Assembly (NCBI GenBank): GCA_946627725.1
Contig: CAMOVW010000001.1
Location: 1-54,085 of the forward strand
DNA length: 54,085 bases
Reading direction: 5' to 3'
Source: an uncultured Clostridia bacterium
GTDB taxonomy: Bacteria > Bacillota > Clostridia > Oscillospirales > Acutalibacteraceae
Shown: positions 1,041 to 54,085 of the stretch, in pieces
Layout: each line of letters opens with the position of its first letter
How positions within the stretch are numbered: position 1 is the stretch's first letter
Program-made: the position numbers and the translations under genes
Notes under the pieces: model-generated
What the model saw: only the letters and a program-made list of their open reading frames with translations
Database searches by the model: none
What the model was told of the DNA's origin: nothing

Positions 1041-1457
1041 ATGAAGTATTATTATTTATATATCCCCGCTTTGGTTTTCTTCCTGCTGCCCCTGCTCAAC
1101 GGCCTGCGTGCTTCCGTCGCGGCCCGCGCCGCTGCCCGCGAGAAGGAAGCGAAGCGCGCCGCCGCTGCCGCTGCGAAGGAGGCCGCCGAGCAGGAGAAGA
1201 AAGCCCGCCAGGAGGCCCGCGCCGCCGCTGCCACCGATCCGGCCCAGGAGCCGAAGCGCAAGCGCGGACGCCCGCGCAAGAATCCCCCGCCGGAGCAACG
1301 CCCCGAAATCATTTTGCCAGAGGAAGCGCCCGCCCCCGTCCAGGAGGAGCCGCCCGCCGTCCAGATTATGACGATCCAGCGCGCAAGCATTTTCCCGAAT
1401 GTTGACAAGATGGAGCCGCCCTGCACCCCGGAAGAATTTGCGAAAAAATTTTGCTGA
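1041..1457 (+). CDS. membrane-anchored Ala/Lys-rich protein with AT-hook-like KRKRGRPRKNP
   Basis: ORF 984..1457 trimmed to ATG 1041 behind GGAGG. N-terminal hydrophobic helix YLYIPALVFFLLPLL, a charged coiled region and the linker QRPEIILPEE. Confidence 0.6.
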   Translation: MKYYYLYIPALVFFLLPLLNGLRASVAARAAAREKEAKRAAAAAAKEAAEQEKKARQEARAAAATDPAQEPKRKRGRPRKNPPPEQRPEIILPEEAPAPVQEEPPAVQIMTIQRASIFPNVDKMEPPCTPEEFAKKFC

Positions 1458-2860: not shown

Positions 2861-3238
2861 ATGGCTTATGATAATATCCGCCGCCTGCTGAAAGACGGCT
2901 ACCCCTGGAAGATTAAGGGCAACGGAGGATATACCGCCTATCTGGTAGACATTCAGCCCCTTGTCGATCATGACTACGAAGCGATTTACCGTTATCCCGG
3001 CGGGGATTGCTGCCATGACCTGGAATCCATCAAGTCGTATTTTACCATTCTTGAGCAGTTCCCGCCGGAAGATGAAGAACAGCCGCGCCCTGTCAAATAT
3101 GGCCCGTATCTCATTGTCTGGCTTGACAGATATGATTGCTGGTGTATTTATGACGACGGCGGAAACAAAGTCCGCGAGCCGCATTGGGCGACCATCGAGG
3201 AGGCCAGGGCTGCCATCATTTCCCGCGAAGCGCTGTAA
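2861..3238 (+). CDS. hypothetical early protein
   Basis: ORF 2843..3238 trimmed to ATG 2861. The conserved leader AACGCCGCGAAATCATTTTGAAAGGAG lies upstream. Confidence 0.65.
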   Translation: MAYDNIRRLLKDGYPWKIKGNGGYTAYLVDIQPLVDHDYEAIYRYPGGDCCHDLESIKSYFTILEQFPPEDEEQPRPVKYGPYLIVWLDRYDCWCIYDDGGNKVREPHWATIEEARAAIISREAL

Positions 3239-3289: not shown

Positions 3290-3553
3290 ATGATTTTTCA
3301 CATTACGCCGAACATCTGCGAAACTGCCCTTGTCGTCGATGAATTGCCGGAAATCGGCAAACCGTTCTGCTGCGGCCCGTATATCGCCGCCCGCGTCCTG
3401 TCCTTGGAGCCGTGCCCGTACACTTGCCCGCAAGACGAGCACCAGGAAGCCCTGCAATATGCTGTGTGGCGTGTCAACTATGAACCCGTTTCCGACCCGC
3501 ACGATGATTATTTCTACGTCGCCATTCATGAGCCAGAATCCGAAACCATATAA
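3290..3553 (+). CDS. hypothetical early protein
   Basis: ORF 3257..3553 trimmed to ATG 3290 behind GAAGGAGGTACACC. Confidence 0.6.
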   Translation: MIFHITPNICETALVVDELPEIGKPFCCGPYIAARVLSLEPCPYTCPQDEHQEALQYAVWRVNYEPVSDPHDDYFYVAIHEPESETI

Positions 3554-3586
3554 CGCCGCGAAATCATTTTGAAAGGAGCCAACACC

Positions 3587-3790
3587 ATGAAAGCCAACAC
3601 CACCATTGCGAAGATTGCCCATTCCATCCGCCGCTTCTTTGTCGGCGAAGCGTACACCGTCGCCGCGTGCCTGCCCGGTTACGGCACGTTCACCTGCACC
3701 ATCAAGGCCCCGAACCGGCAGCGCGCCATGCAGGAAGCGGAAGCGATGGCCGATCCCGGTTTTGTCCTGTCCTGCGAGCTGGCCGCATGA
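3587..3790 (+). CDS. hypothetical small early protein
   Basis: ORF 3569..3790 trimmed to ATG 3587 behind the conserved leader and GGAGCCAACACC. Confidence 0.55.
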   Translation: MKANTTIAKIAHSIRRFFVGEAYTVAACLPGYGTFTCTIKAPNRQRAMQEAEAMADPGFVLSCELAA

Positions 3791-3807: not shown

Positions 3808-3836
3808 TTGACAAACGGGGTACACTAATTTATAAT
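3808..3836 (+). promoter_or_regulatory. early promoter P2 (one ACGGGGTACAC copy in the spacer)
   Basis: TTGACA 3808-3813, 17-nt spacer AACGGGGTACACTAATT, TATAAT 3831-3836. Confidence 0.75.
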
Positions 3837-3862: not shown

Positions 3863-4069
3863 ATGCCGAGAGGAAACACACCCGAACAGCGACGCGCAAA
3901 GAATATTCTTGGCGAGAAGTGGGACAAGGAAAACACCCGTCAAGTCAAGTTCAAGTTCAACATCCGCACCGATGCGGACATTATCGCCCATCTGGAAGCC
4001 CAGCAGAACATCCAGGGCTATGTGAAGCGCCTGATCCGGGACGACATCGCCCGCAGCAGCAAAGGATAA
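3863..4069 (+). CDS. small basic protein, possible ribbon-helix-helix type DNA binder
   Basis: First gene after P2. 68 aa, basic N-terminus followed by helices (VKFKFNIRTDADIIAHLEAQQNIQGYVKRLIRDDI). The fold call is inference only. Confidence 0.5.
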   Translation: MPRGNTPEQRRAKNILGEKWDKENTRQVKFKFNIRTDADIIAHLEAQQNIQGYVKRLIRDDIARSSKG

Positions 4070-4088: not shown

Positions 4089-4325
4089 ATGAGAGAGTAT
4101 TTTGTAAACGTGATCGCCGATGTCATTCCTGGGGATAGCCCCTATCAGCAGACAGTCGTTGCAGCGTACCACGTTCAAGCAGACGCCGAGAAGCACGCCG
4201 CCGATGTGGCAGTTGCAGAAATGATAAAGAGCAATCGCCCGATAGACACCATGACGATCAAGCAAAGCGCCGTTTATCCCGTTGATGAAATGCCGCTCCT
4301 GACGTACCATCCGGCGGAGCCGTAA
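4089..4325 (+). CDS. hypothetical small protein
   Basis: ATG behind GGAGGCCAACACC, 78 aa. Confidence 0.55.
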   Translation: MREYFVNVIADVIPGDSPYQQTVVAAYHVQADAEKHAADVAVAEMIKSNRPIDTMTIKQSAVYPVDEMPLLTYHPAEP

Positions 4326-4354
4326 GAAATCAGCTTGAAAGGGGCGACGTTACC

Positions 4355-4561
4355 GTGCTGAAAGGATTTTATATCATCCAGCGTTTCGATGGAGAAAAGT
4401 GGGTGGATTATTCTTGCCATTACTTCTTTTCACCGATAAGCAAGGTGTTAAGGCAATACAAGTATTTCAAGGAGAAACACCCAGCGGAACGGTTTCGGAT
4501 TGCGAAAGGTAAAGAGGACATAGGGGCTTTCTTCAACCACGCGACGCAAGGCCGCGACTAA
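4355..4561 (+). CDS. hypothetical small protein (lower-GC segment)
   Basis: GTG start behind GAAAGGGG. 68 aa. The local drop in GC suggests an acquired gene. Confidence 0.5.
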   Translation: MLKGFYIIQRFDGEKWVDYSCHYFFSPISKVLRQYKYFKEKHPAERFRIAKGKEDIGAFFNHATQGRD

Positions 4562-4578
4562 TCCGACCAAACCATTCT

Positions 4579-4617
4579 AACGTGCATCTTTCCCGAAAAG
4601 GTGCGCGTTATTTTTAT
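4579..4617 (+). terminator. intrinsic terminator closing the plus-strand early operon
   Basis: 13-bp stem AACGTGCATCTTT / AAAGGTGCGCGTT (two G-U pairs), 5-nt loop, then ATTTTTAT. Confidence 0.7.
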
Positions 4618-6685: not shown

Positions 6686-8161
6686 TCACCCCCTAACTTC
6701 CGCATACTTGCCGCTGATCCAGGCGACTTGCTTCTTGTACACCACCGCGTGCCAGCCGTTTTCTGCGGTCGCCACCCATTCCAGCATCGTACCCTTGGAA
6801 ACGGCGGTGATCCGGCTAAAGTTCGTGCCATTTCCTACGCGCACATTTACGCTGCTCGCAGTCACGACAACCGTCTTTCCCTTCGGTTCCTCGCCGGTTT
6901 CCGGCTTGTCGGGTTCGGGCTGGGTGGGTGTCGGCTGGATGGTGGTGCCTGCGGAATAGTTGGGGCGTCCGTACCCTGCGATACGGTTATAGTTGAGCTT
7001 GTATTTCTTCTTGGCGACGCCTCCGCCATTGGCGACAACGCCGCTCGCGGTGCTGGTGTTGCCCTCTACGGTGTACACATAGGAGTTATCCACCTTGTAC
7101 ACAAGGCCGGTGTGAGAAATGGCGCTGCCACCGATCCCGTCCGCCGGATAGAAGAAAATCTGGTCGCCGGGTTCCGGGCTTTCAAACAGTCTGCCCTTGG
7201 CCTTGTAATACTGGCGGCTGTATTTGCATCCGGCCCCGCAGCTTTTCGTCGGCTGGCACAGCAGCGCGCGCCCGTCGTCCACGCCGTAAGCCTGCACGAA
7301 GCACCAGTCCACAAACACGTCGCACCAGGCGACGCCCTGCTTCCTGCCGTTGTAGAATCCGGGAATGGCGTCCATGTCGCGGGCGTACTTGGTGTAGTTC
7401 TTCTTGCCCGCGTTCCCCGTCTTGCTGTCCAGGTCTTTGTTGCTGGCCTTTTCCAGATAGCCCTCCTCGGCTAAAGCGATGTCGATTACCTTCTGCCGGT
7501 CAAATCCCATGTTTCCCGCCTCCTCGTTTTCGTCGGTGTTGTCCTCGGTTTCCTCGGTGTCCTCCGCCTCCTGGGTGAACCATTCCAGAGGCTTGTCGCC
7601 GTAGAGCATATCCAAATCCACGTTGCCGCTGATCCCGTTTACGCGGCCCTTGCTGGTGTATTGCCAAAGGTCGCAGTAGTATTTCGGCGCGTAGGATTTC
7701 GCGGGCACGCTGCCGTCGTTCTTCCCCCAATGCGGAATCCACATGATGTCACAAATGGAGATTGCCTTTCCTGCCCATTTGTAGCGGGTGTTGATGTACA
7801 GGCCGATCTTTTCACAGCCCAGCTTTCGCAGCTCCTCCAGGAAAGCGACGCATACGGCCTCGGTAGTCGTCGCCGTCTGCGCGCTGTATTCGATGTCCGC
7901 GATGTAGAAAAGCGGCCTGCGCTTCGCCTTGTTCGCGCACTCCACGAAGAACCAGGCTTCTGTTCTGGCCGCCTCGGCGGTTCCGGCCTTGACGTAGTGA
8001 TACGCGCCGTATGGAATCCCGCAGGCTTCCGTGTATTCAAGATAGCGCTTGTCCGCGTTGCCGCCGACGCTGGCGCGGAAAATCGCCATCTCCAGATCGT
8101 CCCTTGCCTTGCTCCAGTCGATAGCCCCCTGATAATGGCTGATGTCTGCAATCTTTTTCAC
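6686..8161 (-). CDS. endolysin: GH25 muramidase + CHAP + SH3-like wall-binding domains
   Basis: N-terminus ADISHYQGAIDW (GH25). Middle AWCDVFVDWCF...ISHTGLVY (CHAP Cys/His). C-terminus VNVRVGNGTNFSRI...GWHAVVY (SH3-like). GTG start behind GGAGGA. Confidence 0.9.
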   Translation of the reverse strand: MKKIADISHYQGAIDWSKARDDLEMAIFRASVGGNADKRYLEYTEACGIPYGAYHYVKAGTAEAARTEAWFFVECANKAKRRPLFYIADIEYSAQTATTTEAVCVAFLEELRKLGCEKIGLYINTRYKWAGKAISICDIMWIPHWGKNDGSVPAKSYAPKYYCDLWQYTSKGRVNGISGNVDLDMLYGDKPLEWFTQEAEDTEETEDNTDENEEAGNMGFDRQKVIDIALAEEGYLEKASNKDLDSKTGNAGKKNYTKYARDMDAIPGFYNGRKQGVAWCDVFVDWCFVQAYGVDDGRALLCQPTKSCGAGCKYSRQYYKAKGRLFESPEPGDQIFFYPADGIGGSAISHTGLVYKVDNSYVYTVEGNTSTASGVVANGGGVAKKKYKLNYNRIAGYGRPNYSAGTTIQPTPTQPEPDKPETGEEPKGKTVVVTASSVNVRVGNGTNFSRITAVSKGTMLEWVATAENGWHAVVYKKQVAWISGKYAEVRG

Positions 8162-8164
8162 GCC

Positions 8165-8314
8165 TTATCCTCCTTTTTTGCGCTTTCGTCGTATTCCGTG
8201 CGGATAGTGCGTCCATGCGATGCCGACAATGCAAACCACGCTGAAAAGAATAAATAAAAGGGCCAGCGCCCCTATAAAGATCGCTGCTTCCAGCAGTTCA
8301 CGCGGCAATTTCAT
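8165..8314 (-). CDS. 49-aa single-TM protein (holin-like), absent from the ORF track
   Basis: Hand translation MKLPRELLEAAIFIGALALLFILFSVVCIVGIAWTHYPHGIRRKRKKGG. ATG 8314 overlaps the RT stop as ATGA. Ends 3 nt before the endolysin GTG. Confidence 0.55.
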   Translation of the reverse strand: MKLPRELLEAAIFIGALALLFILFSVVCIVGIAWTHYPHGIRRKRKKGG

Positions 8315-9654
8315 AAATAGACCACCTCCGCGCTGGCGCACCAGTCGTCATAGCGCGCCCTGATGTCCTCCTCCATCCCGTCGAACGGCTCCACGCCTCG
8401 CACAACGAGCATTTCCACGTCGTAGTCTGTCGCGCCATCCTCCGTCGACAGTGGCAGCACATGGGGCCGCAGATACACGTCCACCGTGCCGTCCTCCTGC
8501 TCCTGGATGGTATAAAAATGCCGCCTCCCCGGCGGCTGATCGCTCTCAATATTCATATTGTCGCACCTTTGAAGTACAAAGTGTTCCTCGATCCAGCGGA
8601 TCATGTTGTGACCGTTACAATGCTTGCACATCCCGATATAGCAGATCACGCTTTCCATCGCCGCGTCATAGCTGATTTGCCATGCGGCAAAGGCCTCCAT
8701 GATGAAGCGCAGGCTCCGCTTGATGTGCGTCGTGGTCTTTCGCCTCATGCGGATGCCGTGCGGCGTCAGCAGATAGCCCACGAACTCAACCGGGGCCGTC
8801 GCCTTTTGGATTCGGCTTTTCGGGCTGATGTCAAGCAGCAGCTCGTCCCGTAGGAAGGTTTCGATGGCGGCGAATATTCGCTTTGCGTTTTCTTTGCCTT
8901 TGACAAGGATGCAGAAATCGTCCATGTAGCGCACATAGTAGTGTACTTTCAGCGTGCGCTTGATGAATTGATCCAGCTTATCCAGAAACAGGTTGGCCGT
9001 TTCCTGGCTCGTCAGGTTGCCGATGGGCATACCCACATCATAGAGCCGCCGCCATCGTGGGCAATCATCCGGCTTCATCCCCGGAGGCAGGCCGAAAGGC
9101 ACGTCCGGGTTATTGATGATCGTCCGCATAAGCCAGCGAAACCAGGCGTCGTCTGATACCTCGTCGTAGGTATTCAGCACCTTCCCGTGTTCAACCCGGT
9201 AAAAGTATTTGCTGATGTCGCCCTTGATAAGATACCATTCGTCCGCGTCCGGCTTCCGGCTGATCTTCTGCTGCCAGTTTTGCAGGCACTCCGCCGCTGG
9301 CAGCGTTCCTTTGCCCTTCCGGCACCCGTAGCTGTGCGTGATATATCGCTTGTCCAGATATGGGTTGATTTGCCGGTAGATGGCCCATTGCACAACGCGA
9401 TCCCGAAAGCCCAGCGCCATGACGAGCCTCGGCTTCGGGTAGCGTACATAAAATTCCCGATATGGCCCCACCTTGTAGGTCATATCCAGTAGCTCTTTCT
9501 GTATCTGGTGCAGATTCGCGCCCAGGTTGAAAGAGAAGTCCAAAACCTCATTGCGATACCGTTTCCCCTTTGCGGCGTCCCGGTAAGCGCCCATCAGGTT
9601 TTCAAAATCACAGATGCGGTCTTTCAGATTGTGCAGCCCTTCCAAAACATTCAC
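8311..9654 (-). CDS. diversity-generating retroelement reverse transcriptase
   Basis: RT motifs PIGNLTSQ and YVRYMDDF. Sits downstream of TR. Start uncertain: GTG 9654 is favoured, although the ORF stays open to 9870. About 85-95 extra C-terminal residues. Confidence 0.9.
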   Translation of the reverse strand: MNVLEGLHNLKDRICDFENLMGAYRDAAKGKRYRNEVLDFSFNLGANLHQIQKELLDMTYKVGPYREFYVRYPKPRLVMALGFRDRVVQWAIYRQINPYLDKRYITHSYGCRKGKGTLPAAECLQNWQQKISRKPDADEWYLIKGDISKYFYRVEHGKVLNTYDEVSDDAWFRWLMRTIINNPDVPFGLPPGMKPDDCPRWRRLYDVGMPIGNLTSQETANLFLDKLDQFIKRTLKVHYYVRYMDDFCILVKGKENAKRIFAAIETFLRDELLLDISPKSRIQKATAPVEFVGYLLTPHGIRMRRKTTTHIKRSLRFIMEAFAAWQISYDAAMESVICYIGMCKHCNGHNMIRWIEEHFVLQRCDNMNIESDQPPGRRHFYTIQEQEDGTVDVYLRPHVLPLSTEDGATDYDVEMLVVRGVEPFDGMEEDIRARYDDWCASAEVVYL

Positions 9655-9917
9655 CCCGCCCTGTGAACTGCCGCGCGTGACGTGTTCCGTCAGGCATAGA
9701 CTGTAATGCCCCAAAATCGCTTTAGGGTATGCTGCGGACAGCCATAGCCCGTTGCCCTTCCGGGCGCTTCGCGGTGATTCCTGCCGCGTGTTTCCTGCGG
9801 AGCGTTCTTGCCGCCGCGCGTCAGGATTTTTGTTTAGCCCCTTCGGGCCGAGGAAACGCACCCCTCCCATCAGCGGATGGCCGCTGATTCGTAATCTCGC
9901 GGCGCGTAATATATGCT
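9655..9917 (-). ncRNA. DGR spacer region between TR and RT (probable part of the TR-containing RNA)
   Basis: No RBS-supported coding. Hairpin ATCAGCGG-CCAT-CCGCTGAT on the minus strand near 9870-9890. The position matches the Sp region of known DGR RNAs. Confidence 0.5.
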
Positions 9918-10066: not shown

Positions 10067-10489
10067 TCACGGCGCGTTCCCTCTGCTATCGCCACTCTTG
10101 CGGCCAGATACGCTATTCATCCAGCCGCCGATCAAAGCCCCGATCTCGTCAATCTTCTTTGACCATTCGCCGTAGCTCTGATCCGTGAGCAATCGCCTTG
10201 TTTTTCCGCTCTTGTCCGTGAAAATGATCTTGTTCGCCTGCTGGATGAAGATGTCCAGCACGGCCTTGCTGGTGTCCAGGTCGGCCAGCGTGCTTTTGTT
10301 CATGTACCGCAGGCGGGCCTTTGTCGCCAGCCGCAGCATCGTGTACATTTCCTGCATGATGTCCACGCCCAGGCTCCGCTTATGGAAGCTCGGCCAGCGC
10401 TCCACGATGGGGCGCGCGTATTGGATCATGTCGTCGATCTTCTGGCAGCATGGCCCCGGATTGCTCCTGTCGTACTTAAATTCCGGCAT
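10067..10489 (-). CDS. avd: accessory variability determinant (Avd-like helical bundle protein)
   Basis: 140 aa helical protein sitting between the target gene and TR, as in canonical DGRs. Confidence 0.75.
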   Translation of the reverse strand: MPEFKYDRSNPGPCCQKIDDMIQYARPIVERWPSFHKRSLGVDIMQEMYTMLRLATKARLRYMNKSTLADLDTSKAVLDIFIQQANKIIFTDKSGKTRRLLTDQSYGEWSKKIDEIGALIGGWMNSVSGRKSGDSRGNAP

Positions 10490-39549: not shown

Positions 39550-40047
39550 TCAATCCCTCACATTATGGATCGTCACTTTGATGTGCCGACCTAAAAAGTC
39601 AAGTCCACGTCGTGTCAGGTAATAATACGGCATTTTCCCGGACGCTTCCGGTTCCAGCTTTTCCGCAAGCCCTAACACCCCGCTAAAATAGTCCAGATAC
39701 TTGTTGAAGCCCGCCCAATAGTTGCGATACGGCTTGTAAAACAATTTTCCGTGACGCCTGTATGGCTTATGCTTGAACATGTCCAAACCGATCATGTGGC
39801 GCATGTCGTCCAAGGCTTTTTCCAGCTTCCAGCCTTTGTTATCAAAATCCATCTGGATTCCCATATCGTCGCCCATGTCGCCGAGATAATCCGAGTATTC
39901 TTCGTCCATTTTTTCAAGCTGCCGACGGGTGAGAGTGCATCCATCTTCTCCGTCTTTCCACGTCGTTTCTTTCCCTGTCCCTGGACAATCCGGGTAATCT
40001 CCTGCTTCGCTCTGTGGAGGATTCCACGGACACTTGCTGCATTTCAT
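39550..40047 (-). CDS. hypothetical protein
   Basis: ATG 40047 behind GGAGGCCAACACC. Confidence 0.55.
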   Translation of the reverse strand: MKCSKCPWNPPQSEAGDYPDCPGTGKETTWKDGEDGCTLTRRQLEKMDEEYSDYLGDMGDDMGIQMDFDNKGWKLEKALDDMRHMIGLDMFKHKPYRRHGKLFYKPYRNYWAGFNKYLDYFSGVLGLAEKLEPEASGKMPYYYLTRRGLDFLGRHIKVTIHNVRD

Positions 40048-40063
40048 GGTGTTGGCCTCCTTG

Positions 40064-40474
40064 TCAGTTTTCTTGTCTGGTGTTGTCCCGAACGTCATGC
40101 TCTGCCGCCCGTCTGATCTCCGGCTTTAATACCTTTTCAAAGATCAACGGGCACTCAAAGCACCGTTCCTTGTCGCAATTCTCCTCGTAGTCCTCCTCCG
40201 AGCACTTTCCTTCGTGGTACAGGTCGTTGCACAGGTCGGAAAGCCACTCCCAAACTTCATCAAGGCTGTACTCGTCGCCGTCGTACCAATCGGAGGCCAG
40301 ATAGGCTTCCAGCAGCGCGTCGCAATGGATGTGCTGATGAAAGGTGTTTATCTCCCCGTCGTACTTCTGGCTTACAAAGACATATTCGCGGCCTTTGAGG
40401 ATCGGCTTTCCGCACACGTCGCACTTGTGGTCTTTCCGTGCCTTTCGCTGCTCCGTTCTGGAAAATTCAAGCAT
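40064..40474 (-). CDS. Cys/His-rich hypothetical protein
   Basis: ATG 40474 behind GGAGGCCAGCACC. Confidence 0.55.
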   Translation of the reverse strand: MLEFSRTEQRKARKDHKCDVCGKPILKGREYVFVSQKYDGEINTFHQHIHCDALLEAYLASDWYDGDEYSLDEVWEWLSDLCNDLYHEGKCSEEDYEENCDKERCFECPLIFEKVLKPEIRRAAEHDVRDNTRQEN

Positions 40475-40754
40475 GGTGCTGGCCTCCATCTTCGGTTTTC
40501 AGCGGGCGAAGGAACAGATAGCGGACGCGGTTCCGCAACCTCATGGTTGATATTCTGTTTTCCAGTTCTGCCCTATTACGCATGAAGTATGTCAAGCGCT
40601 GCGCGCACGTCCGGCAAAGGGTGAGGCTTTGAATGTCGTTCATGTCGTCGCACGTTCGGCGCTCAACAATTCTGTATTCTCGTCCTCCGAAAAAGTCCTT
40701 AAGGTCAAATCCCTTAACGTCTACTCCGCAGATGTCGCAGTATTCCTTCGTCAT
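40467..40754 (-). CDS. small Cys-rich protein
   Basis: ATG 40754 behind GGAGGCCAGCACC. Contains CDICG…CRTC. Confidence 0.5.
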   Translation of the reverse strand: MTKEYCDICGVDVKGFDLKDFFGGREYRIVERRTCDDMNDIQSLTLCRTCAQRLTYFMRNRAELENRISTMRLRNRVRYLFLRPLKTEDGGQHHA

Positions 40755-40772
40755 GGTGCTGGCCTCCTCTCG

Positions 40773-47179: not shown

Positions 47180-47392
47180 TTACACAGCCTCCTTGGCTGG
47201 TTTGTAGTGGTACAGCTCCTCCGGGGTTTTCTTCAACACCTGGCACAGTCCGAAAAACTCATCCACGTCAACCTTGCGCTTACCGGCGAGCATGGCGCTG
47301 AAAGTAGGCTCGCTCATGCCGATACGGTCAGCGATGTACTTCTGCTTCAAGCCGCTGTCTGCGACTGCCGCGCTGATGCGTTCATTAACCAC
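47180..47392 (-). CDS. Cro-like XRE-family HTH regulator
   Basis: 70 aa. LKQKYIADRIGMSEPTFSAMLAGKR helix-turn-helix. Divergent from the repressor. Confidence 0.8.
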   Translation of the reverse strand: MVNERISAAVADSGLKQKYIADRIGMSEPTFSAMLAGKRKVDVDEFFGLCQVLKKTPEELYHYKPAKEAV

Positions 47393-47413: not shown

Positions 47414-47430
47414 CTTCGGAATCTCCGAAG
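47414..47430. promoter_or_regulatory. operator O1 (CTTCGGA-ATC-TCCGAAG)
   Basis: Perfect 7+3+7 palindrome just downstream of the cro-side -10. Confidence 0.6.
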
Positions 47431-47557: not shown

Positions 47558-47929
47558 GTGGGAGAAATAAGAAAGACCGTAGGAGAGAATATTAAGAAGG
47601 TCTGCCAACTAAAGGGAATACGACAGGTTGATATATCGGAGCACATGAAGGTGTCACAGGGCACGGTTTCCAATTGGTTCAAAGGCACGAACTCAATAGA
47701 TATTGAAAACCTCGCCGAATTGTGCTCTTTCCTCGGCGTTTCATTGGATCAGATTTTCGGCGTGGCCCCGCTGACGCCAGAAGTTACATTGTCACAGGAA
47801 GAAACCGACCTTTTGAGCATGTTCCGTGCTTTGAACAGCCAGGGGAAGGATATGCTCATGAGCACAGCCCGCGCTTTTGCGGGCAATCCTGATATGCAAA
47901 AAGAAAGTACGAAGTCAAAGATGGCGTGA
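47558..47929 (+). CDS. CI-like XRE-family repressor (no peptidase domain)
   Basis: GTG start behind AAGGAGG. N-terminal HTH QVDISEHMKVSQGTVSNWFKG. Confidence 0.8.
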   Translation: MGEIRKTVGENIKKVCQLKGIRQVDISEHMKVSQGTVSNWFKGTNSIDIENLAELCSFLGVSLDQIFGVAPLTPEVTLSQEETDLLSMFRALNSQGKDMLMSTARAFAGNPDMQKESTKSKMA

Positions 47930-48545: not shown

Positions 48546-48659
48546 AAAAATGCCCGCCCCGGTTTCCCAGGACGGGCCGCAAAATCAGCCAACACCACTT
48601 GTCCGATTTGCTATTCCATTATAGCGCGGCGAGGGTTATTTGTCAAGGAGCGAAAACGC

Positions 48660-50276
48660 ATGAAAACCGTTAAAACCCAAAGCGGCGCGACGAAAGCGGT
48701 AATCTATGCCCGCTATTCGTCCCACGGCCAGACGGAGCAATCCATAGAGGGCCAGTTGCATGATAACTACGCCTGGGCGAAACAGCAAGGGATCACCGTC
48801 ATAGGCGAATATATAGACCGCGCCCTGACCGGCACAAAGGACGCCCGCCCGGACTTCCAGCGAATGATTGAGGACGCGGCCAAGCGCCAGTTTGAAATGG
48901 TGATCGTCTGGAAGCTGGACAGGTTCGCCCGCAATCGCTACGACAGCGCCATCTACAAGGCCCGTCTGAAAAAGTACGGCGTCAAGGTCGTGTCCGTAAA
49001 AGAGAACATCACCGACAGCCCGGAAGGAATTATCCTGGAAGGGCTGCTGGAGAGCATGGCGGAATACTACTCGGCCAATCTTTCGCAGAACGTCAAGCGC
49101 GGACTGCGCGAGAGCGTGGAAAAGGGGTATTACTGCGGCGGAAGCATCCCATACGGCTACAAGGCGGAAAACCACCGCCTTGTCCCGGACGAGAAAACCG
49201 CGCCCATCATCCGCTATGTGTTTGAGGAGTACGCCAAGGGCACGTCCAAGAAGGAGATCATCGACGAGCTGAACCGGCGCGGCGTGCGCAACGGGAAGGG
49301 AAACCCGCTGACATATACATCCTTCCAGCATGCCCTACGCATGACCACCTATATAGGGGAGTATGTCTATCAGGGAAAGGTCGTGCCCTGCGCCGATCCT
49401 CTGGTGACGCGGGAAGTGTTTGACAAGGTGCAGGCCCGCCTTGACCGGCGCGCTCATGCTCCCGCCGCTGCCAAGGCTCGCGTCCCGTATCTGCTGCAAG
49501 GGAAAGCCTGGTGCGGCCTGTGCGGCGCGCCCATGTTTGGGGAAAGCGGCACGTCGCACACCGGCGCGCTTCACACCTATTACTGCTGCTACAATCGGAA
49601 ACGGAAAAAGGGATGCAAGAAGAAAACCGAGCGCCGCGATAAGCTGGAAACCTTCATCGTCGCCCGGACGATGGATTATATCTTGACGCCATCCCGTATG
49701 AACAGGATAGCAAAGGCCGTCGTGCAGGAGTATTACAAGGAGTTCTCCGGCTCCCGCGTGGAGAATATGGAAAAGGCCATCGCACAGATAGACCGGGAAA
49801 TGGACAAGCTGGTGGACGCCCTGATTGACGCGCCCAAGGCCGCACACAAGAAAATCTATGCCCGTATGGAAGCGCTGGAAGCGCAGAAAGCGGAATTTGA
49901 AACCGACGCGGCCAAGCTGCGCGTCGCAATGGGCCTCCGCCTGACGGAAAAGGAAGTCGTGTCCTGGCTAAAGACCTTCCGCGACGGCGATCCAGACGAT
50001 CCCGATTTCCGCCGCCGCCTGGTGGACATCTTCATCAATGCCGTGTACGTCTACGACGACAGGATCATAGTCTTTTACAACATCCGGGGAGGCAAACAGG
50101 TGTCGAGCAAAGACCTGTACGAAGCCCTGGAAAGCCCGAAAGATAAAGAAAATTCCAAACCCGAAACAGGTTCGGATTTGGAATCATCTGGCGGGGCGGG
50201 TAATTCTAAATCCGAACCCGAATTTGTATTTGTGCATGGCGTCTTTGGGTGCATTTTCCCATGGGGCGAGGGATGA
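48660..50276 (+). CDS. int: large serine recombinase (integrase)
   Basis: AVIYARYSSHGQ catalytic-Ser region, resolvase and recombinase domains, Cys cluster (CGLCG…YYCCYNRKRKKGC) and a coiled coil. Confidence 0.95.
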   Translation: MKTVKTQSGATKAVIYARYSSHGQTEQSIEGQLHDNYAWAKQQGITVIGEYIDRALTGTKDARPDFQRMIEDAAKRQFEMVIVWKLDRFARNRYDSAIYKARLKKYGVKVVSVKENITDSPEGIILEGLLESMAEYYSANLSQNVKRGLRESVEKGYYCGGSIPYGYKAENHRLVPDEKTAPIIRYVFEEYAKGTSKKEIIDELNRRGVRNGKGNPLTYTSFQHALRMTTYIGEYVYQGKVVPCADPLVTREVFDKVQARLDRRAHAPAAAKARVPYLLQGKAWCGLCGAPMFGESGTSHTGALHTYYCCYNRKRKKGCKKKTERRDKLETFIVARTMDYILTPSRMNRIAKAVVQEYYKEFSGSRVENMEKAIAQIDREMDKLVDALIDAPKAAHKKIYARMEALEAQKAEFETDAAKLRVAMGLRLTEKEVVSWLKTFRDGDPDDPDFRRRLVDIFINAVYVYDDRIIVFYNIRGGKQVSSKDLYEALESPKDKENSKPETGSDLESSGGAGNSKSEPEFVFVHGVFGCIFPWGEG

Positions 50277-50356: not shown

Positions 50357-51480
50357 ATTATCCGCGCGCGCACGCGCGAGGGGGCCGTTTGTGGCCGTCC
50401 AGGTGAATGAAATTCATAAAAAAAATAAAAAAATTAGTGAAATGGTGGGCTCCCAGCGCCCGCGAGAGAGGAAAATGACGCGCGCAGTACCTACACGCGG
50501 AAGCGGGCGCGCGCGTACACGCGCGGGCGTGCGAGCGCGCGGCGCGACGCGAGCGCAGGGGCGCGGGGGCGCGTGGGGGCACGCGGCGCGTGACGCAGGG
50601 GCGCAGGGGCGCGCGGATGCGTAGCGCGCTGGCGTTGCGCGTTGCGCGGTAAAAGCAACCCCGTAGGGGTTGCATCCTGGGGCGTGTAGCGCCCGCGTGA
50701 TGGCGCGGTGCGTGGCGCGGGGGCCGCGTGTCCAGGGGCGCGGCGCAGCGGGGCGCGGATCGCGGGCGGGGCCATGGGCGGCCATGGGCGCGGCGCGGGC
50801 CGTCGGGGCAATTCGGCAGCAGGCCGCCGGGGATCGCCGCCGGGGGCCGGGGCCGTCGGGGACGTGTCCAGGATCGCCGCCGGATGGATCGCCCGCCGGG
50901 ACGGTTGACAGCTCCGGCGACGTGTCCAGGCAGCAGGCAGCTCCTCGCGCGCGCCCGCATGGGTAGCCGGGGCGACGTGTCCAGGATCGCCGCCGGGGAT
51001 CGCGGCAGGCAGCAGGGGCCGCCCGCGTCCAGGGGGGCAGGCGTCCAGGGGCGCGGCAGGGGCCGCCGGGGATCGCCGCCCGTAAAGGGGCAGCATGTTT
51101 TTATTTCATTCGGCCCTGATTTTTTCCGCCGGGGATCGCGGGCAACGTGTCCAGGGGGCAGCAGGCCGCCGGGGCCGGGGACGTGTCCAGGGGCAGCAGG
51201 CCGCCGGATGGATCGCGGCAGGCAGCAGGGGCCGCCCGCGTCCAGGGGGCCGGATTATTTCAGCAAGGGCAGCAGGCCGCCGGGGCCGGGGACGTGTCCA
51301 GGGGGGCAGCAGGCCGCCGGATGGTTCGCGGCAGGCAGCAGGGGCCGCCCGCGTCCAGGGGGCCGGATTATTTCAGCGGGGCAGCGGGCCGCCGGGGCCG
51401 TGTCCATTTCGACGGGCGGCAGGGGCGCGGCGCGCATGGGCGGCGCGGGCAGGATCGCGCTCACGCATATACGCGGGAAC
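50357..51480 (+). repeat. extremely GC-rich, G-strand-biased degenerate repeat array (non-coding)
   Basis: (CG)n-like runs at 50357-50640. At least 11 same-strand copies of CG(T/C)GTCCAGG, with recurring GCAGCAGGCCGCCGG and GGATCGC units. All six frames are open and Arg/Gly/Pro-rich. Confidence 0.8.
51157..51377 (+). repeat. two near-identical tandem units of about 110 nt inside the array
   Basis: 51157-51264 versus 51268-51377 differ only by a GG insertion and an A/T change. Each splits into two sub-units of about 55 nt. Confidence 0.85.
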
Positions 51481-51544
51481 ATAAAACGCGCGTGCGCCCG
51501 TTGCCCCTCAAAAAAATTTTTTTATTCCCCGTAGGGGAATACCT

Positions 51545-51585: not shown

Positions 51586-51678
51586 GTGCTATGCTTTTCA
51601 CGTCGCAAGGCAAGCGGCCCGCCGGGGACGGCGGCAAGCCCCCGAAAAAATTTCCCGAAAAAAATTTTTGAAAAGGGC

Positions 51679-51731
51679 TTGACAAACGGGGTACACCGTG
51701 ATAATATGGGCACCGTGGACGGGGTACACCG
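51679..51731 (+). promoter_or_regulatory. early promoter P3 with two direct ACGGGGTACACCG repeats
   Basis: TTGACA 51679-51684, 17-nt spacer, TAATAT 51702-51707. The 13-mer occurs at 51686-51698 and 51719-51731. A-tracts upstream. Near-duplicate of P1. Confidence 0.75.
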
Positions 51732-52019: not shown

Positions 52020-52119
52020 CAAGCCGAAACGCGGCGCGGGCCGCGTCCGCCGGGGATCGCCTCCCGGCGCTGATGATGGCAGGCGAACACAACACCGAAT
52101 TTTTAAGGAGGCCAACACC

Positions 52120-53016
52120 ATGAAGGATCTGTATTCTGAAATCACCAACGGTATCATTGAACAGCTGGAGCAGGGCGTTATCCCGTGGAAAAAGCCCTGG
52201 ACGGGCGTCAATTCCGGCGCTATCAGTCACGCGACGGGCCGCGCGTATAGCCTGCTGAATCAGATGTTGCTTGCCCGCCCCGGTGAATATATCACCTTCA
52301 ATCAGTGCAAGCAGGAGGGCGGCAAGGTCAAGAAGGGCGCGAAGTCAAAAATTGTCGTGTTCTGGAAGGTGCTGCCCCGCGAAAAGAAGGACGCCGACGG
52401 AAACATTATCACCAACGCCGACGGCAAGCCGATCATTGAAGGGCTGCCCGTGCTCCGTTACTTCCAGGTGTTTCATATCGACGATTGCGAAGGGATCGCC
52501 CCGAAATGGGAAAACAAGCTGCCCGCCGTCGCAAGCCCCGACGAACGCGCCGAAAATGTTTTGATGGATTATGTACGCCGGGAAAACATTCGGCTTGAAA
52601 ACGTGATAGGCGACAAGGCGTATTATTCCCCCTCCTGTGACCTTATCCGGCTGCCGATCATGGAGCAATTCGACAGCACCGCCGAATATTACGGCACCGC
52701 GTACCATGAAGCAACCCATAGCACCGGCCACGCAACGCGGCTAAACCGTTTCACCGGGGACGCTGCCGCCGCCGCTTTCGGCTCCGAATCGTACAGCAAA
52801 GAGGAGCTTGTCGCGGAAATCGGCTCCGCCTGCTGCCTGCATGAATTGGGCCTTGAAACGCCGTCCAGCTTCAAAAACTCCGCCGCCTATATTCAGTCCT
52901 GGCTCCGCGTTTTGAAGGACGACAAGCGAATGATTATCAGCGCCGCCGCCCGCGCCGAAAAGGCCGTCAAGCTGATTTTCAACATCACCGACAGCAAGCA
53001 GGCGGACGGGGAATAA
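52120..53016 (+). CDS. ardC: ArdC-like antirestriction protein (ssDNA-binding N-domain + zincin-like protease domain)
   Basis: GVIPWKKPW N-terminal motif and HEATHSTGH (HExxH) in the C-terminal half. Confidence 0.85.
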   Translation: MKDLYSEITNGIIEQLEQGVIPWKKPWTGVNSGAISHATGRAYSLLNQMLLARPGEYITFNQCKQEGGKVKKGAKSKIVVFWKVLPREKKDADGNIITNADGKPIIEGLPVLRYFQVFHIDDCEGIAPKWENKLPAVASPDERAENVLMDYVRRENIRLENVIGDKAYYSPSCDLIRLPIMEQFDSTAEYYGTAYHEATHSTGHATRLNRFTGDAAAAAFGSESYSKEELVAEIGSACCLHELGLETPSSFKNSAAYIQSWLRVLKDDKRMIISAAARAEKAVKLIFNITDSKQADGE

Positions 53017-53065
53017 TCCCCGCCCCCTGCAACGCCCCGAAATCATTTTGAAGGAGGCCAACACC

Positions 53066-53296
53066 ATGAAAAAGCTGCTTGCAATCGTCGCCGCCCTGGC
53101 CCTTGTCGCCGCTGCTTCATTCGCCGCCGGACGGGCCGCCGGTATCCGGCACGCGATAGAGGACGCCGAAATATACACGGTTGAATGTTACGATCCCGAC
53201 AACCCCGACGAAAACGCCCGCCCCGACGGCACCGATCAAACAATCTATATCGAGCTGGACGGGGAAATATACGAGCACGGCATGTATCAGGGATGA
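53066..53296 (+). CDS. small membrane-anchored/secreted protein
   Basis: ORF trimmed to ATG 53066. Begins MKKLLAIVAALALVAAASFAAG. Confidence 0.6.
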   Translation: MKKLLAIVAALALVAAASFAAGRAAGIRHAIEDAEIYTVECYDPDNPDENARPDGTDQTIYIELDGEIYEHGMYQG

Positions 53297-53413
53297 ACGC
53301 CCCGAAATCATTCCGCCCGACGATGGCCCGCCGGTTACGGGCCGAAACGATCCCGCCGGGATCGTCGCGGAAAACCGCAACGCATCGAAATCATTTTGAA
53401 GGAGGCCAACACC
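53294..53413 (+). repeat. long-form intergenic element, copy C (hairpins 53325-53343 and 53347-53365)
   Basis: Contains the same 55-mer as the window ends (53327-53381). Confidence 0.8.
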
Positions 53414-54001
53414 ATGAAAACCGTTTTCACCTTTACCGCCGACAGCATCACCGTCAAGGGCAAGACTTTCCCCGCTGAATACTCCGTTACCCCGTCCGGC
53501 TCCGTGTTCGTGTTCGTCCAGGAGGACGGCAAGCAGGAAAAAACCCGTATTCGCTTCAACCCAGATCATGCCGAATACGCCGCCGCCCTGGCCGCCGCCC
53601 GCAACGAGCAGCCCGCCCCCGCTGCCGATGAACGCCCCGAAATCATTCCCGCCGCCGATCCGGCCCCCGCTGCCGTGGAAGAAACGCCCGCCGCCCCCGC
53701 TGCCGATCCCGCCCCCGTCGCCGACGGAAAAGCGACGCGCGGCCCCGTCCCGGAAAAGACTTTCATCGGCGAAAGCATCACCGGCAACGGCTGGAAAATC
53801 CTTTTTGACGGCGAAACGAGCCGCACACGGATTATCTTTGAGAGCAAGCCCACGGACGCCGCCCGCGCTGCCCTGGACAAGGCCGGTTTCTTCTTCTCCG
53901 CCGCTATGAATAGCTGGAATAAGAAATTGACCTTCAAGGCATACCGCGCCGCGCAAGCCCTGGCCGGTGAATTGTCCGCCCTGTACCCCGCCGCCGCTTG
54001 A
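53414..54001 (+). CDS. hypothetical early protein (beta-rich N-domain, Pro/Ala linker, GFxxS…W C-domain)
   Basis: ORF trimmed to ATG 53414. Linker ADERPEIIPAADP. The C-terminus DKAGFFFSAAMNSWNKKL resembles plasmid/phage DUF3560-type domains. Confidence 0.65.
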   Translation: MKTVFTFTADSITVKGKTFPAEYSVTPSGSVFVFVQEDGKQEKTRIRFNPDHAEYAAALAAARNEQPAPAADERPEIIPAADPAPAAVEETPAAPAADPAPVADGKATRGPVPEKTFIGESITGNGWKILFDGETSRTRIIFESKPTDAARAALDKAGFFFSAAMNSWNKKLTFKAYRAAQALAGELSALYPAAA

Positions 54002-54002
54002 C

Positions 54003-54085
54003 GGCGCGGGAACATTCCGCCCGACGATGGCCCGCCGGTTACGGGCCGAAACGATCCCGCCGGGATCGTCGCGGAAAACCGCAAC
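54003..54085 (+). repeat. long-form intergenic element, copy A (continues at nt 1-87 if the ends are joined)
   Basis: Hairpins at 54029-54047 and 54051-54069. Followed at nt 56-87 by the conserved leader of gene 88..987. Confidence 0.75.

Follow-up and report, generated by a model that had tools for sequence, protein, structure and literature searches.

A putative palindromic operator at three predicted strong promoters and a small candidate autorepressor in the accessory operon of a rumen Clostridia phage

We have analyzed the promoters, operator-like boxes and candidate regulator of an accessory operon on contig CAMOVW010000001.1 of an uncultured Clostridia bacterium (GenBank assembly GCA_946627725.1). 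The whole contig, 54,085 nt, is referred to here as the window. Its end is an exact 55-nt copy of its start, so the contig is circular, with a length of ~54.0 kb, and it is the genome of a temperate phage of rumen Clostridia. Near-identical DNA is present in two Clostridia metagenome-assembled genomes (MAGs), one from sheep rumen and one from roe deer omasum, and in many ruminant gut metagenomes; no cultured phage was found with similar DNA. The operon begins at promoter P3 (51679, + strand), runs across the circular junction through promoters P1 (1478) and P2 (3808), and ends at a terminator at 4578-4610. All three promoters carry a palindromic box. Directly behind P2 lies the gene for a basic 68-aa protein (3863-4069, + strand; pI 10.2), the candidate repressor, which is always found directly behind P2 in relatives of the phage.

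The three promoters are marked by an 18-mer, TTGACAAACGGGGTACAC, which occurs exactly at 1478, 3808 and 51679 on the plus strand and nowhere else in the window, even with 3 mismatches allowed (0.06 expected). Each has hexamers of the housekeeping sigma factor (sigma-70/sigma-A) within the 16-18 nt spacing. P2 matches the consensus at 12 of 12 positions (TTGACA at 3808-3813, a spacer of 17 nt, TATAAT at 3831-3836). P1 scores 11 of 12 (TTGACA at 1478-1483, 17-nt spacer, TACAAT at 1501-1506, with a TG extension at 1498-1499) and P3 scores 10 of 12 (TTGACA at 51679-51684, 17-nt spacer, TAATAT at 51702-51707, extended by TG at 51699-51700). Judged by these matches, all three would be very strong housekeeping-sigma promoters; a consensus promoter requires no activator. 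Upstream of P1 and P3 are A/T tracts that resemble UP elements (AAAAAAATTTTTGAAAA at about -57 to -41). Those of P3 (GAAAAAATTT, GAAAAAAATTTTT and GAAAAGGG, 51644-51677, + strand) are identical to their P1 counterpart at 31 of 45 positions, and those of P1 (1440-1477, + strand) overlap the 3' end of the gene at 1041-1457. Similar tracts also precede the diverged promoters of two more distant relatives, L128 and L132, and P2, which lies directly behind a coding region, is without them. The original prediction, which was made for the P3 module from its UP element through its second box (51640-51731), had described the A-tracts as phased; their starts are 13 nt apart, which is not one helical turn.

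The 13-mer ACGGGGTACACCG is found exactly at 1485, 1518, 51686 and 51719, and with 2 mismatches at 3815. Allowing up to 2 mismatches, there are 9 matches against 1.1 expected, a number reached in 0 of 100 shuffled sequences. In P1 and P3 the first box (O1, ACGGGGTACACCGT; 1485-1498 and 51686-51699, + strand) fills the -35-proximal part of the 17-nt spacer and, in P3, abuts the TG of the extended -10. The second box (O2, ACGGGGTACACCG; 1518-1530 and 51719-51731, + strand) follows at a distance of exactly 33 nt in both, which places it at about +5 to +18 of the predicted P3 transcript, counting from a start site deduced from the -10. P2 has a single box, in its spacer (3815-3827, + strand), whose right half is degraded (ACGGGGTACACTA; ACGGGGTACACCA in L002). 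The five copies at three promoters are placed as operators would be, in the spacer or just after the start. In all of this the original prediction was accurate: the shared 18-mer, the 13-mer boxes and promoter scores of 10-12 out of 12 make the three promoters one module with a common operator, present twice in P1 and P3 and in the spacer only in P2.

The nature of the box is another matter. It had been taken for a direct-repeat operator, and is itself an imperfect palindrome of 14-16 bp, AACGGgGTACaCCGTG, with the core GGGGTACACC (ideal form GGTGTACACC); the 'direct repeat' is thus two copies of one dyad. Self-complementarity is 12 of 16 positions for O1, 10 of 16 for O2 and 8 of 16 for the P2 box. 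From the positions of O1 and O2, a protein bound at either would be expected to keep RNA polymerase out or to obstruct it. P1 and P3 are not the near-duplicates over ~110 nt that had been proposed, since they are ~73% identical overall and the boxes stand out as islands of identity. The -35 with O1 is identical at 21 of 21 positions and O2 at 13 of 13, whereas the inter-box segment retains 11 of 19 (58%) and the segment after O2 12 of 23; the boxes are thus 100% conserved against 52-69% for the flanking segments. As had been predicted, this operator is unlike that of the cI/cro switch: the sequence TTCGGA-N3-TCCGAA is found at 47415 and 47477 only, and in none of P1-P3. No relevant paper came up when the literature was searched for this palindrome as an operator already described.

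Comparison with relatives supports the same distinction between the boxes and their surroundings. In the close relatives, which are IMG/VR contigs and the two MAGs, the boxes are retained; the inter-box segment exists there in at least four versions, and different genes follow. Among metagenome variants and close relatives together, changes between the boxes fall at 8 positions, and the boxes are intact except for two single changes. P3 O1 is invariant in all relatives and metagenome variants seen; the metagenome contigs gave one variant within a box, a low-depth G>A at 51723, at a non-symmetric position of P3 O2. A scan of viral contigs for the 14-mer ACGGGGTACACCGT returned, among the matches listed, the close relative L003 and single matches in unrelated contigs, which served only as control loci.

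Two further contigs have the gene order of the window with promoters that cannot be aligned to it. L128, whose regulator is 66% identical, carries TTGACAGGGTGAACACCG...GGGTGAACACCC, 37 nt apart, and TTGACAAACAGTGTACACCA before the regulator gene. L132 (regulator 56% identical) carries TTGACATGGGTGTACACCCA...AGGGTACACCCA. Here the perfect palindrome TGGGTGTACACCCA adjoins the -35, the second box, AGGGTACACCCA, lies ~34 nt downstream, and a split dyad, GGGTGTATAC-N-GTATACACCC, is found around the -10 of the regulator promoter. From these boxes the conserved core is GGTGTACACC, and the spacing varies. The placement of dyads seen in the window recurs in L128, L132 and a third locus, L199. The box is thus kept at these promoters, even at those that have drifted too far for alignment, which was the motif check that the original prediction had proposed. 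The spacing of the two boxes is 33 nt in the window, 37 nt in L128, ~34 nt in L132 and 26 nt in L199. These four lineages rule out helical phasing of the two boxes, and with it the suggestion that 33 nt represents three helical turns. Overall the earlier interpretation is partly supported, being right in substance and wrong in the direct repeat and the helical phasing.

Besides the 68-aa protein, the recognisable DNA-binding proteins of the phage are cI, Cro and a DUF1492 late regulator only. The predicted layout of the 68-aa protein is an N-terminal helix, an extended segment (QVKFKFN) and two helices. An AlphaFold2 monomer model (mean predicted local distance difference test score 85.5) has a helix at residues 7-24, a confident extended segment at 25-37 with V-K-F-K-F alternation, and helices at 38-46 and 50-66. 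The order of these elements in the model looks like that of a ribbon-helix-helix (RHH) protein. A monomer cannot form the RHH ribbon, and the protein would probably be an RHH-type dimer with an N-terminal helical arm. The family comprises 74 homologue clusters in the protein collection searched and is present on at least 454 viral contigs. Searches for the family gave one weak hit in 50,697 phage records and one in plasmids (tblastn against 72,556). A Foldseek search of BFVD with the model returned uncharacterised proteins only.

The association between the palindrome and this gene family was assessed on 80 viral loci carrying a homologue, of which 69 are non-redundant, and on 73 upstream regions. 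The half-site GTACACC/GGTGTAC is enriched 7-fold within 100 nt upstream of family genes (6 occurrences against 0.88 expected, P 3e-4). A -35 followed by the exact palindromic 8-mer (TTGAC[AT]-N0-14-GTGTACAC) is found in 8 of the 69 non-redundant family loci and in none of 118 control viral loci, which add up to the same length and were unmatched for host or habitat. At ten loci the family gene is preceded on its own strand by a palindrome promoter, at a distance of 27-2701 nt, with only same-strand open reading frames (ORFs) between them. The 68-aa family is the only protein common to more than six of 14 box-bearing loci; a protein cluster found in six of them is an antisense ORF of the 68-aa gene itself. 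This association across otherwise unrelated contigs supports the earlier naming of the small basic protein after P2 as one candidate regulator. The anatomy of the promoters, the conservation of the boxes and their co-occurrence with the gene family are direct observations.

The position of the dyad within these promoters varies. It adjoins the -35 in the window and L199, lies in mid-spacer in L186, L190 and L169, covers the -10 in L153, L155, L189, L204 and L146, or follows the start; such variation fits an operator and does not fit a polymerase contact. The dyad is commoner in loci whose protein has a Q.K.K.N strand (12 of 18, against 17 of 51 for the others), and GTGTACAC is the top enriched palindromic 8-mer in those loci (9 of 18 against 9 of 51). 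The outer dyad bases are GGTGTACAC[CT] with K at strand residue 31, AGTGTACACT with N and TGTGTACACA with A, which is suggestive, in a small sample, of outer bases that follow this residue. Where K29 is replaced by H, GTGCGCAC occurs in 7 of 11 loci, against 8 of 58 others, and the change from GTGTACAC to GTGCGCAC may represent a specificity switch of the operator centre from TA to CG. We do not rely on this covariation. Four of the GTGCGCAC copies (L149 136, L173 441, L175 1487 and L187 43) are in one shared promoter, flanked by GAGCACATAA repeats after the -10, and therefore belong to one lineage and are not independent. On a 217-kb viral contig (IMGVR_UViG_3300032038_009890; L236/L268), five or more TTGACA-N9-TATAGGTGTACACTTATA promoters lie within ~11 kb; TATAGGTGTACACTTATA is an 18-bp near-palindrome over the -10.

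The genes of the operon are grouped behind the three promoters. The first gene after P3 (51765-52019, + strand; 84 aa, no family) is missing in some relatives, and in L003 ardC follows P3 directly. The ArdC-like anti-restriction gene of the window (52120-53016, + strand) matches PF08401 (ArdC N-terminal, 8.7e-25) and PF18818 (zincin-like metallopeptidase, 1.3e-36). It is followed by two ORFs of 76 aa and 195 aa with conserved ribosome-binding sites (RBSs) (53066-54001, + strand), and the P3 operon continues beyond the circular junction with genes at 88-987 and 1041-1457 (+ strand). The P1 operon has five genes, all on the plus strand (1571-2233, 2348-2827 [DUF6908], 2861-3238, 3290-3553 and 3587-3790). 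Behind the candidate repressor, two small P2-operon genes (4089-4561, + strand; 78 aa and 68 aa) are not conserved beside the regulator in relatives, and a terminator-like hairpin with a 14-pair stem and a T-run (4578-4610, + strand) closes the plus-strand operon. The 68-aa gene thus lies in the last promoter unit of an operon that contains ardC, which is the position typical of Aca regulators, and the inverted repeat typical of them is present in the P2 box, in the boxes of P1 and P3 and at the ten further loci. On two unrelated contigs, L204 and L155, the palindrome promoter is followed first by an ArdC or ArdC N-terminal domain gene, with the 68-aa gene downstream of it; in L128 the 68-aa gene is the last plus-strand gene.

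The P3 transcript also contains a type II hammerhead ribozyme between the first gene and ardC, just upstream of the latter (52022-52088, + strand; Rfam RF02276, 56.5 bits against a gathering score of 37, E 4.5e-9). It is present as well in the sheep-rumen MAG relative L126 (1581-1646, - strand), and in a population variant the first P3 gene is deleted exactly up to the ribozyme (51768 joined to 52021). A second, hammerhead-like motif occurs between genes in three window copies (2245-2312, 53309-53376 and 54013-54080, + strand). It has the form UUCCGC-C(U/C)GANGA-U-[hairpin]-GAAAC-[hairpin]-GUC-GCGGAA, with stem I open, and is found in 1-4 copies per contig, also in L003/L140, L127, L131, L132, L142, L144 and L151. 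Across 16 distinct copies, pairing is kept in 96% of cells, and compensatory double changes are seen at 7 pairs, a covariation reached in 0 of 500 shuffles; slid controls give 0-1. Rfam did not call this motif even at E 10, and the fold comes from our alignment alone. At position 4 of the core, 10 copies have U and 6 have C, the three window copies among the latter. From its alignment, the motif may be an unmodelled hammerhead variant, of which the C4 copies may be slow or dead.

Most plus-strand genes, and a few on the minus strand, are preceded by a linker/RBS sequence, AACGCCGCGAAATCATTTTGAAGGAGGCCAACACCATG, found at 53-103, 1536-1586, 2313-2363, 3552-3602, 52083-52126, 53029-53072 and 53377-53420 (+ strand) and at 40045-40060, 40472-40487 and 40752-40767 (- strand); its 16-mer core has 14 matches against 0.06 expected. 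In metagenome contigs many different sequences are joined at both edges of the linker, whose depth is 5-10 times that of its flanks. Gene cassettes appear to recombine at the linker/RBS.

The accessory operon is located on the cI/recombinase side of the genome; that it is early, as the original prediction had it, is an assumption. Along the plus-strand arm, cI is followed by the gene for a 192-aa protein and the recombinase, next by 1.1 kb of GC-rich repeats and finally by the P3/P1/P2 operon. The Cro/cI-type divergent pair is at 47180-47392 (- strand) and 47558-47929 (+ strand), and the serine recombinase is at 48660-50276. Between the 192-aa gene and the recombinase gene a 12/12 consensus promoter points in the opposite direction (48618-48646, - strand) and is followed after ~40 nt by a strong terminator-like hairpin (48552-48577, - strand); it could produce a very short RNA, antisense to nothing annotated. 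The gap between the recombinase and P3 holds 1.1 kb of non-coding DNA (50400-51500; 64% GC) with dense degenerate repeats (GACGTGTCCAGG, GGCCGCCGGGG; 113-nt units). Counterparts with the conserved start CGCGCGCACGCGCGAGGGG...GTGAATGAAAT lie at 4280-4640 of L128 and 1940-2500 of L132, and the MAG contig breaks within this region, for which an origin, a partition site and an attachment region are possible roles. Long minus-strand ORFs make up most of the remaining window. Among the minus-strand genes that were checked, a 491-aa ORF (6686-8161, - strand) appears lysin-like by eye. A bAvd accessory protein (PF22296, 8.5e-19) stands beside an ORF resembling reverse transcriptase (8311-9870 and 10067-10489, - strand), likely a diversity-generating retroelement; the same pairing occurs in L128, there with an RVT_1 match. 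The DUF1492 protein (PF07374; 33727-34239, - strand), of a family that includes ArpU-type late-gene regulators, is encoded upstream of the putative small terminase gene and is probably the late activator.

The protein that binds the boxes is, by sequence, most likely the 68-aa protein encoded behind P2. We consider it probable, though by no means certain, that P1-P3 form an autoregulated switch, similar to those of Aca proteins and of the plasmid regulator Reg576, in which the 68-aa protein represses all three promoters through the palindrome. The presence of the box on the 68-aa gene's own promoter in several lineages is a signature of autoregulation. Binding, repression, timing and fold are what we infer beyond this. 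When the genome enters a cell that lacks the protein, all three promoters would fire, and the regulator would be made together with the ArdC-like anti-restriction protein and other accessory proteins. The accumulating regulator would then close P1 and P3, each of which has two good sites. Its own promoter, P2, with one degraded site, would be throttled less tightly, leaving a low steady level of regulator that would keep the regulon shut, in the lysogen as well, with the cI operators taking no part at P1-P3. Anti-restriction and accessory genes would thus be expressed in a burst and then shut off.

A number of results weigh against this interpretation. The 68-aa protein matches no RHH family or structure: there was no Pfam or NCBIfam match and no PHROG function, PDB profile searches with two alignments gave only noise and no RHH protein, Foldseek against PDB with the model gave 0 hits, and hhalign against Arc and CopG found nothing, with a probability of 0.1% for Arc. 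When 32 family members were compared with Pfam, 3 gave weak BrnA or RHH_7 hits (E 0.02-0.08). The box is absent directly upstream of the family gene in 63 of 73 upstream regions, where the genes are inside operons. The control loci, as mentioned, were not matched for host or habitat. L130 has a homologue with the same predicted strand residues, yet it has no dyad in 10 kb or in its own promoter. In the reverse test, the family gene was found in the fetched stretch of only 5 of 120 TTGACA-N13-GGTGTACACT loci (0 of the 118 controls), and no homologue was seen in the ~10.7 kb examined of the 217-kb contig. Box spacings of 26-37 nt give no support for cooperative binding on one face of the DNA. 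As to transcription, contigs from RNA-labelled wastewater runs cross the promoter uninterrupted, so that these runs contain DNA and are uninformative on start sites, and four true metatranscriptomes left the promoter region uncovered.

Some of these results would be explained if a host-encoded regulator, for example a dimer of the GntR/HutC type, were to bind the boxes, so that the accessory operon follows a physiological signal of the host. The core G-GT-G-TA-C-AC-C fits the pattern GT-N-TA-N-AC of GntR/HutC-type operators, a further point against the 68-aa protein that makes a host factor a live rival. The 115 of 120 palindrome loci without a visible family gene in the fetched stretch, the five or more promoters of the 217-kb contig included, and the family gene without a box in L130 point the same way. 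We nevertheless regard a host factor as unlikely, because contigs that are otherwise unrelated share the box together with the 68-aa gene, the box in each case lying upstream on the same strand, and because it is found on the gene's own promoter in several lineages; its outer bases also vary with strand residue 31, although the sample is small. It seems still more doubtful that another phage protein (cI, Cro or an unannotated small protein) binds the boxes and that the 68-aa gene is merely regulated. The operators of cI and Cro are different and confined to their intergenic region, no other family reaches more than six of the 14 box-bearing loci, and P2 with the regulator gene is constant in relatives whose neighbouring genes differ. 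What speaks for such a protein is that Foldseek, Pfam and hhalign left the fold of the 68-aa protein unconfirmed, and that about half of the small proteins of the phage are without a family assignment.

The boxes could also lack a dedicated regulator altogether, the promoter being a mobile cassette copied by recombination, the second 13-mer a local duplication, and the conservation a matter of recent descent or promoter strength. Close relatives are indeed nearly identical overall, the same promoter module stands before different genes in relatives, with gene swaps at the conserved linker/RBS, and in several contigs the palindrome overlaps the -10 (GGTG-TACACT) and so doubles as a promoter element. 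Such a cassette would hardly account for boxes that are perfectly kept around 19 nt of only 58% identity, for a palindrome that recurs in promoters without alignable flanks, or for a dyad whose position shifts from beside the -35 to mid-spacer, the -10 or past the start; moreover, dyad symmetry is not known to play a part in recognition by sigma factors. We consider this explanation improbable. The least probable, to which we attach very little weight, is that O2 acts in the RNA, as an element of the 5' untranslated region (UTR) that serves translation, transcript stability or the binding of a protein. Both O1 and the P2 box precede the predicted starts and are outside their own transcripts, and the 5' UTRs fold no better than shuffled sequences (z -0.2 and -0.3). 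On the other hand, O2 does lie within the transcript, the operon is rich in structured RNA, hammerheads included, and Aca proteins can bind 5'-UTR RNA motifs too (PMC13551039).

The autoregulated switch that we favor has its closest described counterpart in the regulon of Reg576 from Bacillus pumilus plasmid p576 (pLS20 family, clade II). This is a tested establishment regulon of four strong promoters, part of which bear another operator past the start. The promoter of the repressor is less strictly repressed, ardC is included and the cargo is mosaic (PMC6294495; PMC8708921); an X-ray structure of Reg576 has been reported (PMC6294495). The phage operon would likewise have several strong sigma-A promoters with one operator, a second operator after the start on some of them, a promoter for the small repressor itself that is predicted to be less strictly repressed, ardC in the regulon, variable and mosaic regulated genes, and a predicted burst on entry followed by shutoff. 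The carrier here is a temperate phage, whereas p576 is a conjugative plasmid, and the palindrome in the spacer differs from the Reg576 operator, a dual direct heptamer (TTATCCC-N2-TTATCCC) upstream of the -35 (PMC8708921). The Reg576 circuit has been tested experimentally, whereas the present one is predicted from sequence. Searches for homology found no RHH protein among PDB-chain profiles and no Bacillus hit by tblastn against 72,556 plasmids.

As in Aca systems, the gene of the small regulator comes last, or nearly last, in an operon with anti-defence cargo. The recognisable cargo here is ArdC, an anti-restriction protein, with no known acr gene beside it. Aca14, an RHH-type Aca repressor that also regulates adjacent operons, carries an additional helical extension (PMC13551039). 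The box, to which binding is putative, resembles the Aca14 repeat as an inverted repeat that overlaps the core promoter and also covers neighbouring operons, and the 68-aa model, too, has an extra helix, at its N-terminus. Unlike the repeat of Aca14, which is AT-rich and lies over the -10, the present box is GC-rich, adjoins the -35 and recurs after the start; the tested Aca14 is from Pasteurella multocida, and the host here is a member of the Clostridia. The likeness proposed to Reg576 and Aca is one of circuit logic.

Three other systems are similar in part. Arc/Mnt of the P22 immI region is a second, RHH-based circuit apart from the cI-type switch, with a strong promoter shut soon after infection; unlike the present operator, it controls one divergent promoter pair and an antirepressor and not three accessory/anti-restriction cassettes. 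In the IncW plasmid R388, the small repressor ArdK shuts the leading-region promoters of ardC and neighbouring establishment genes by negative feedback, with a transcriptional overshoot expected on entry; R388 is a Gram-negative conjugative plasmid. In T4-type phages, small accessory early genes lie between promoter early stem-loop (PeSL) cassettes, in which a promoter and a hairpin are repeated as a module and through which these genes appear to be shuffled. Swap points are marked in a parallel way here, by the promoter module, the conserved linker/RBS and the hammerhead-like hairpins; PeSLs, for their part, lack a repressor operator, and nothing ribozyme-like is seen in their hairpins.

Should the 68-aa protein prove to be the repressor, phages would have in this operon an equivalent of the establishment regulons of plasmids and of acr-aca operons. 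We found no described regulatory circuit for phages of rumen and gut Clostridia in the libraries and papers searched. The logic of the circuit (strong promoters, negative feedback and weaker autoregulation) is already well known, so that the gain lies in breadth and not in a new principle. As a tentative extension, which we hold with less confidence than the switch itself, the 68-aa family may be a widespread and previously unrecognised master switch of anti-restriction/'establishment' regulons in the phages of gut and rumen Firmicutes, and may, with its GTGTACAC-type operator, intergenic hammerheads and shared linker/RBS, constitute a modular, recombination-prone expression platform. ArdC was met three times independently behind such promoters (P3 of the window, L204 and L155). 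Since the operator is short, recognisable and tied to a family present in hundreds of viral contigs, the pair could be used for the discovery of anti-restriction and other counter-defence genes by guilt-by-association, and the platform, if it is real, could serve as bait for new anti-defence genes.

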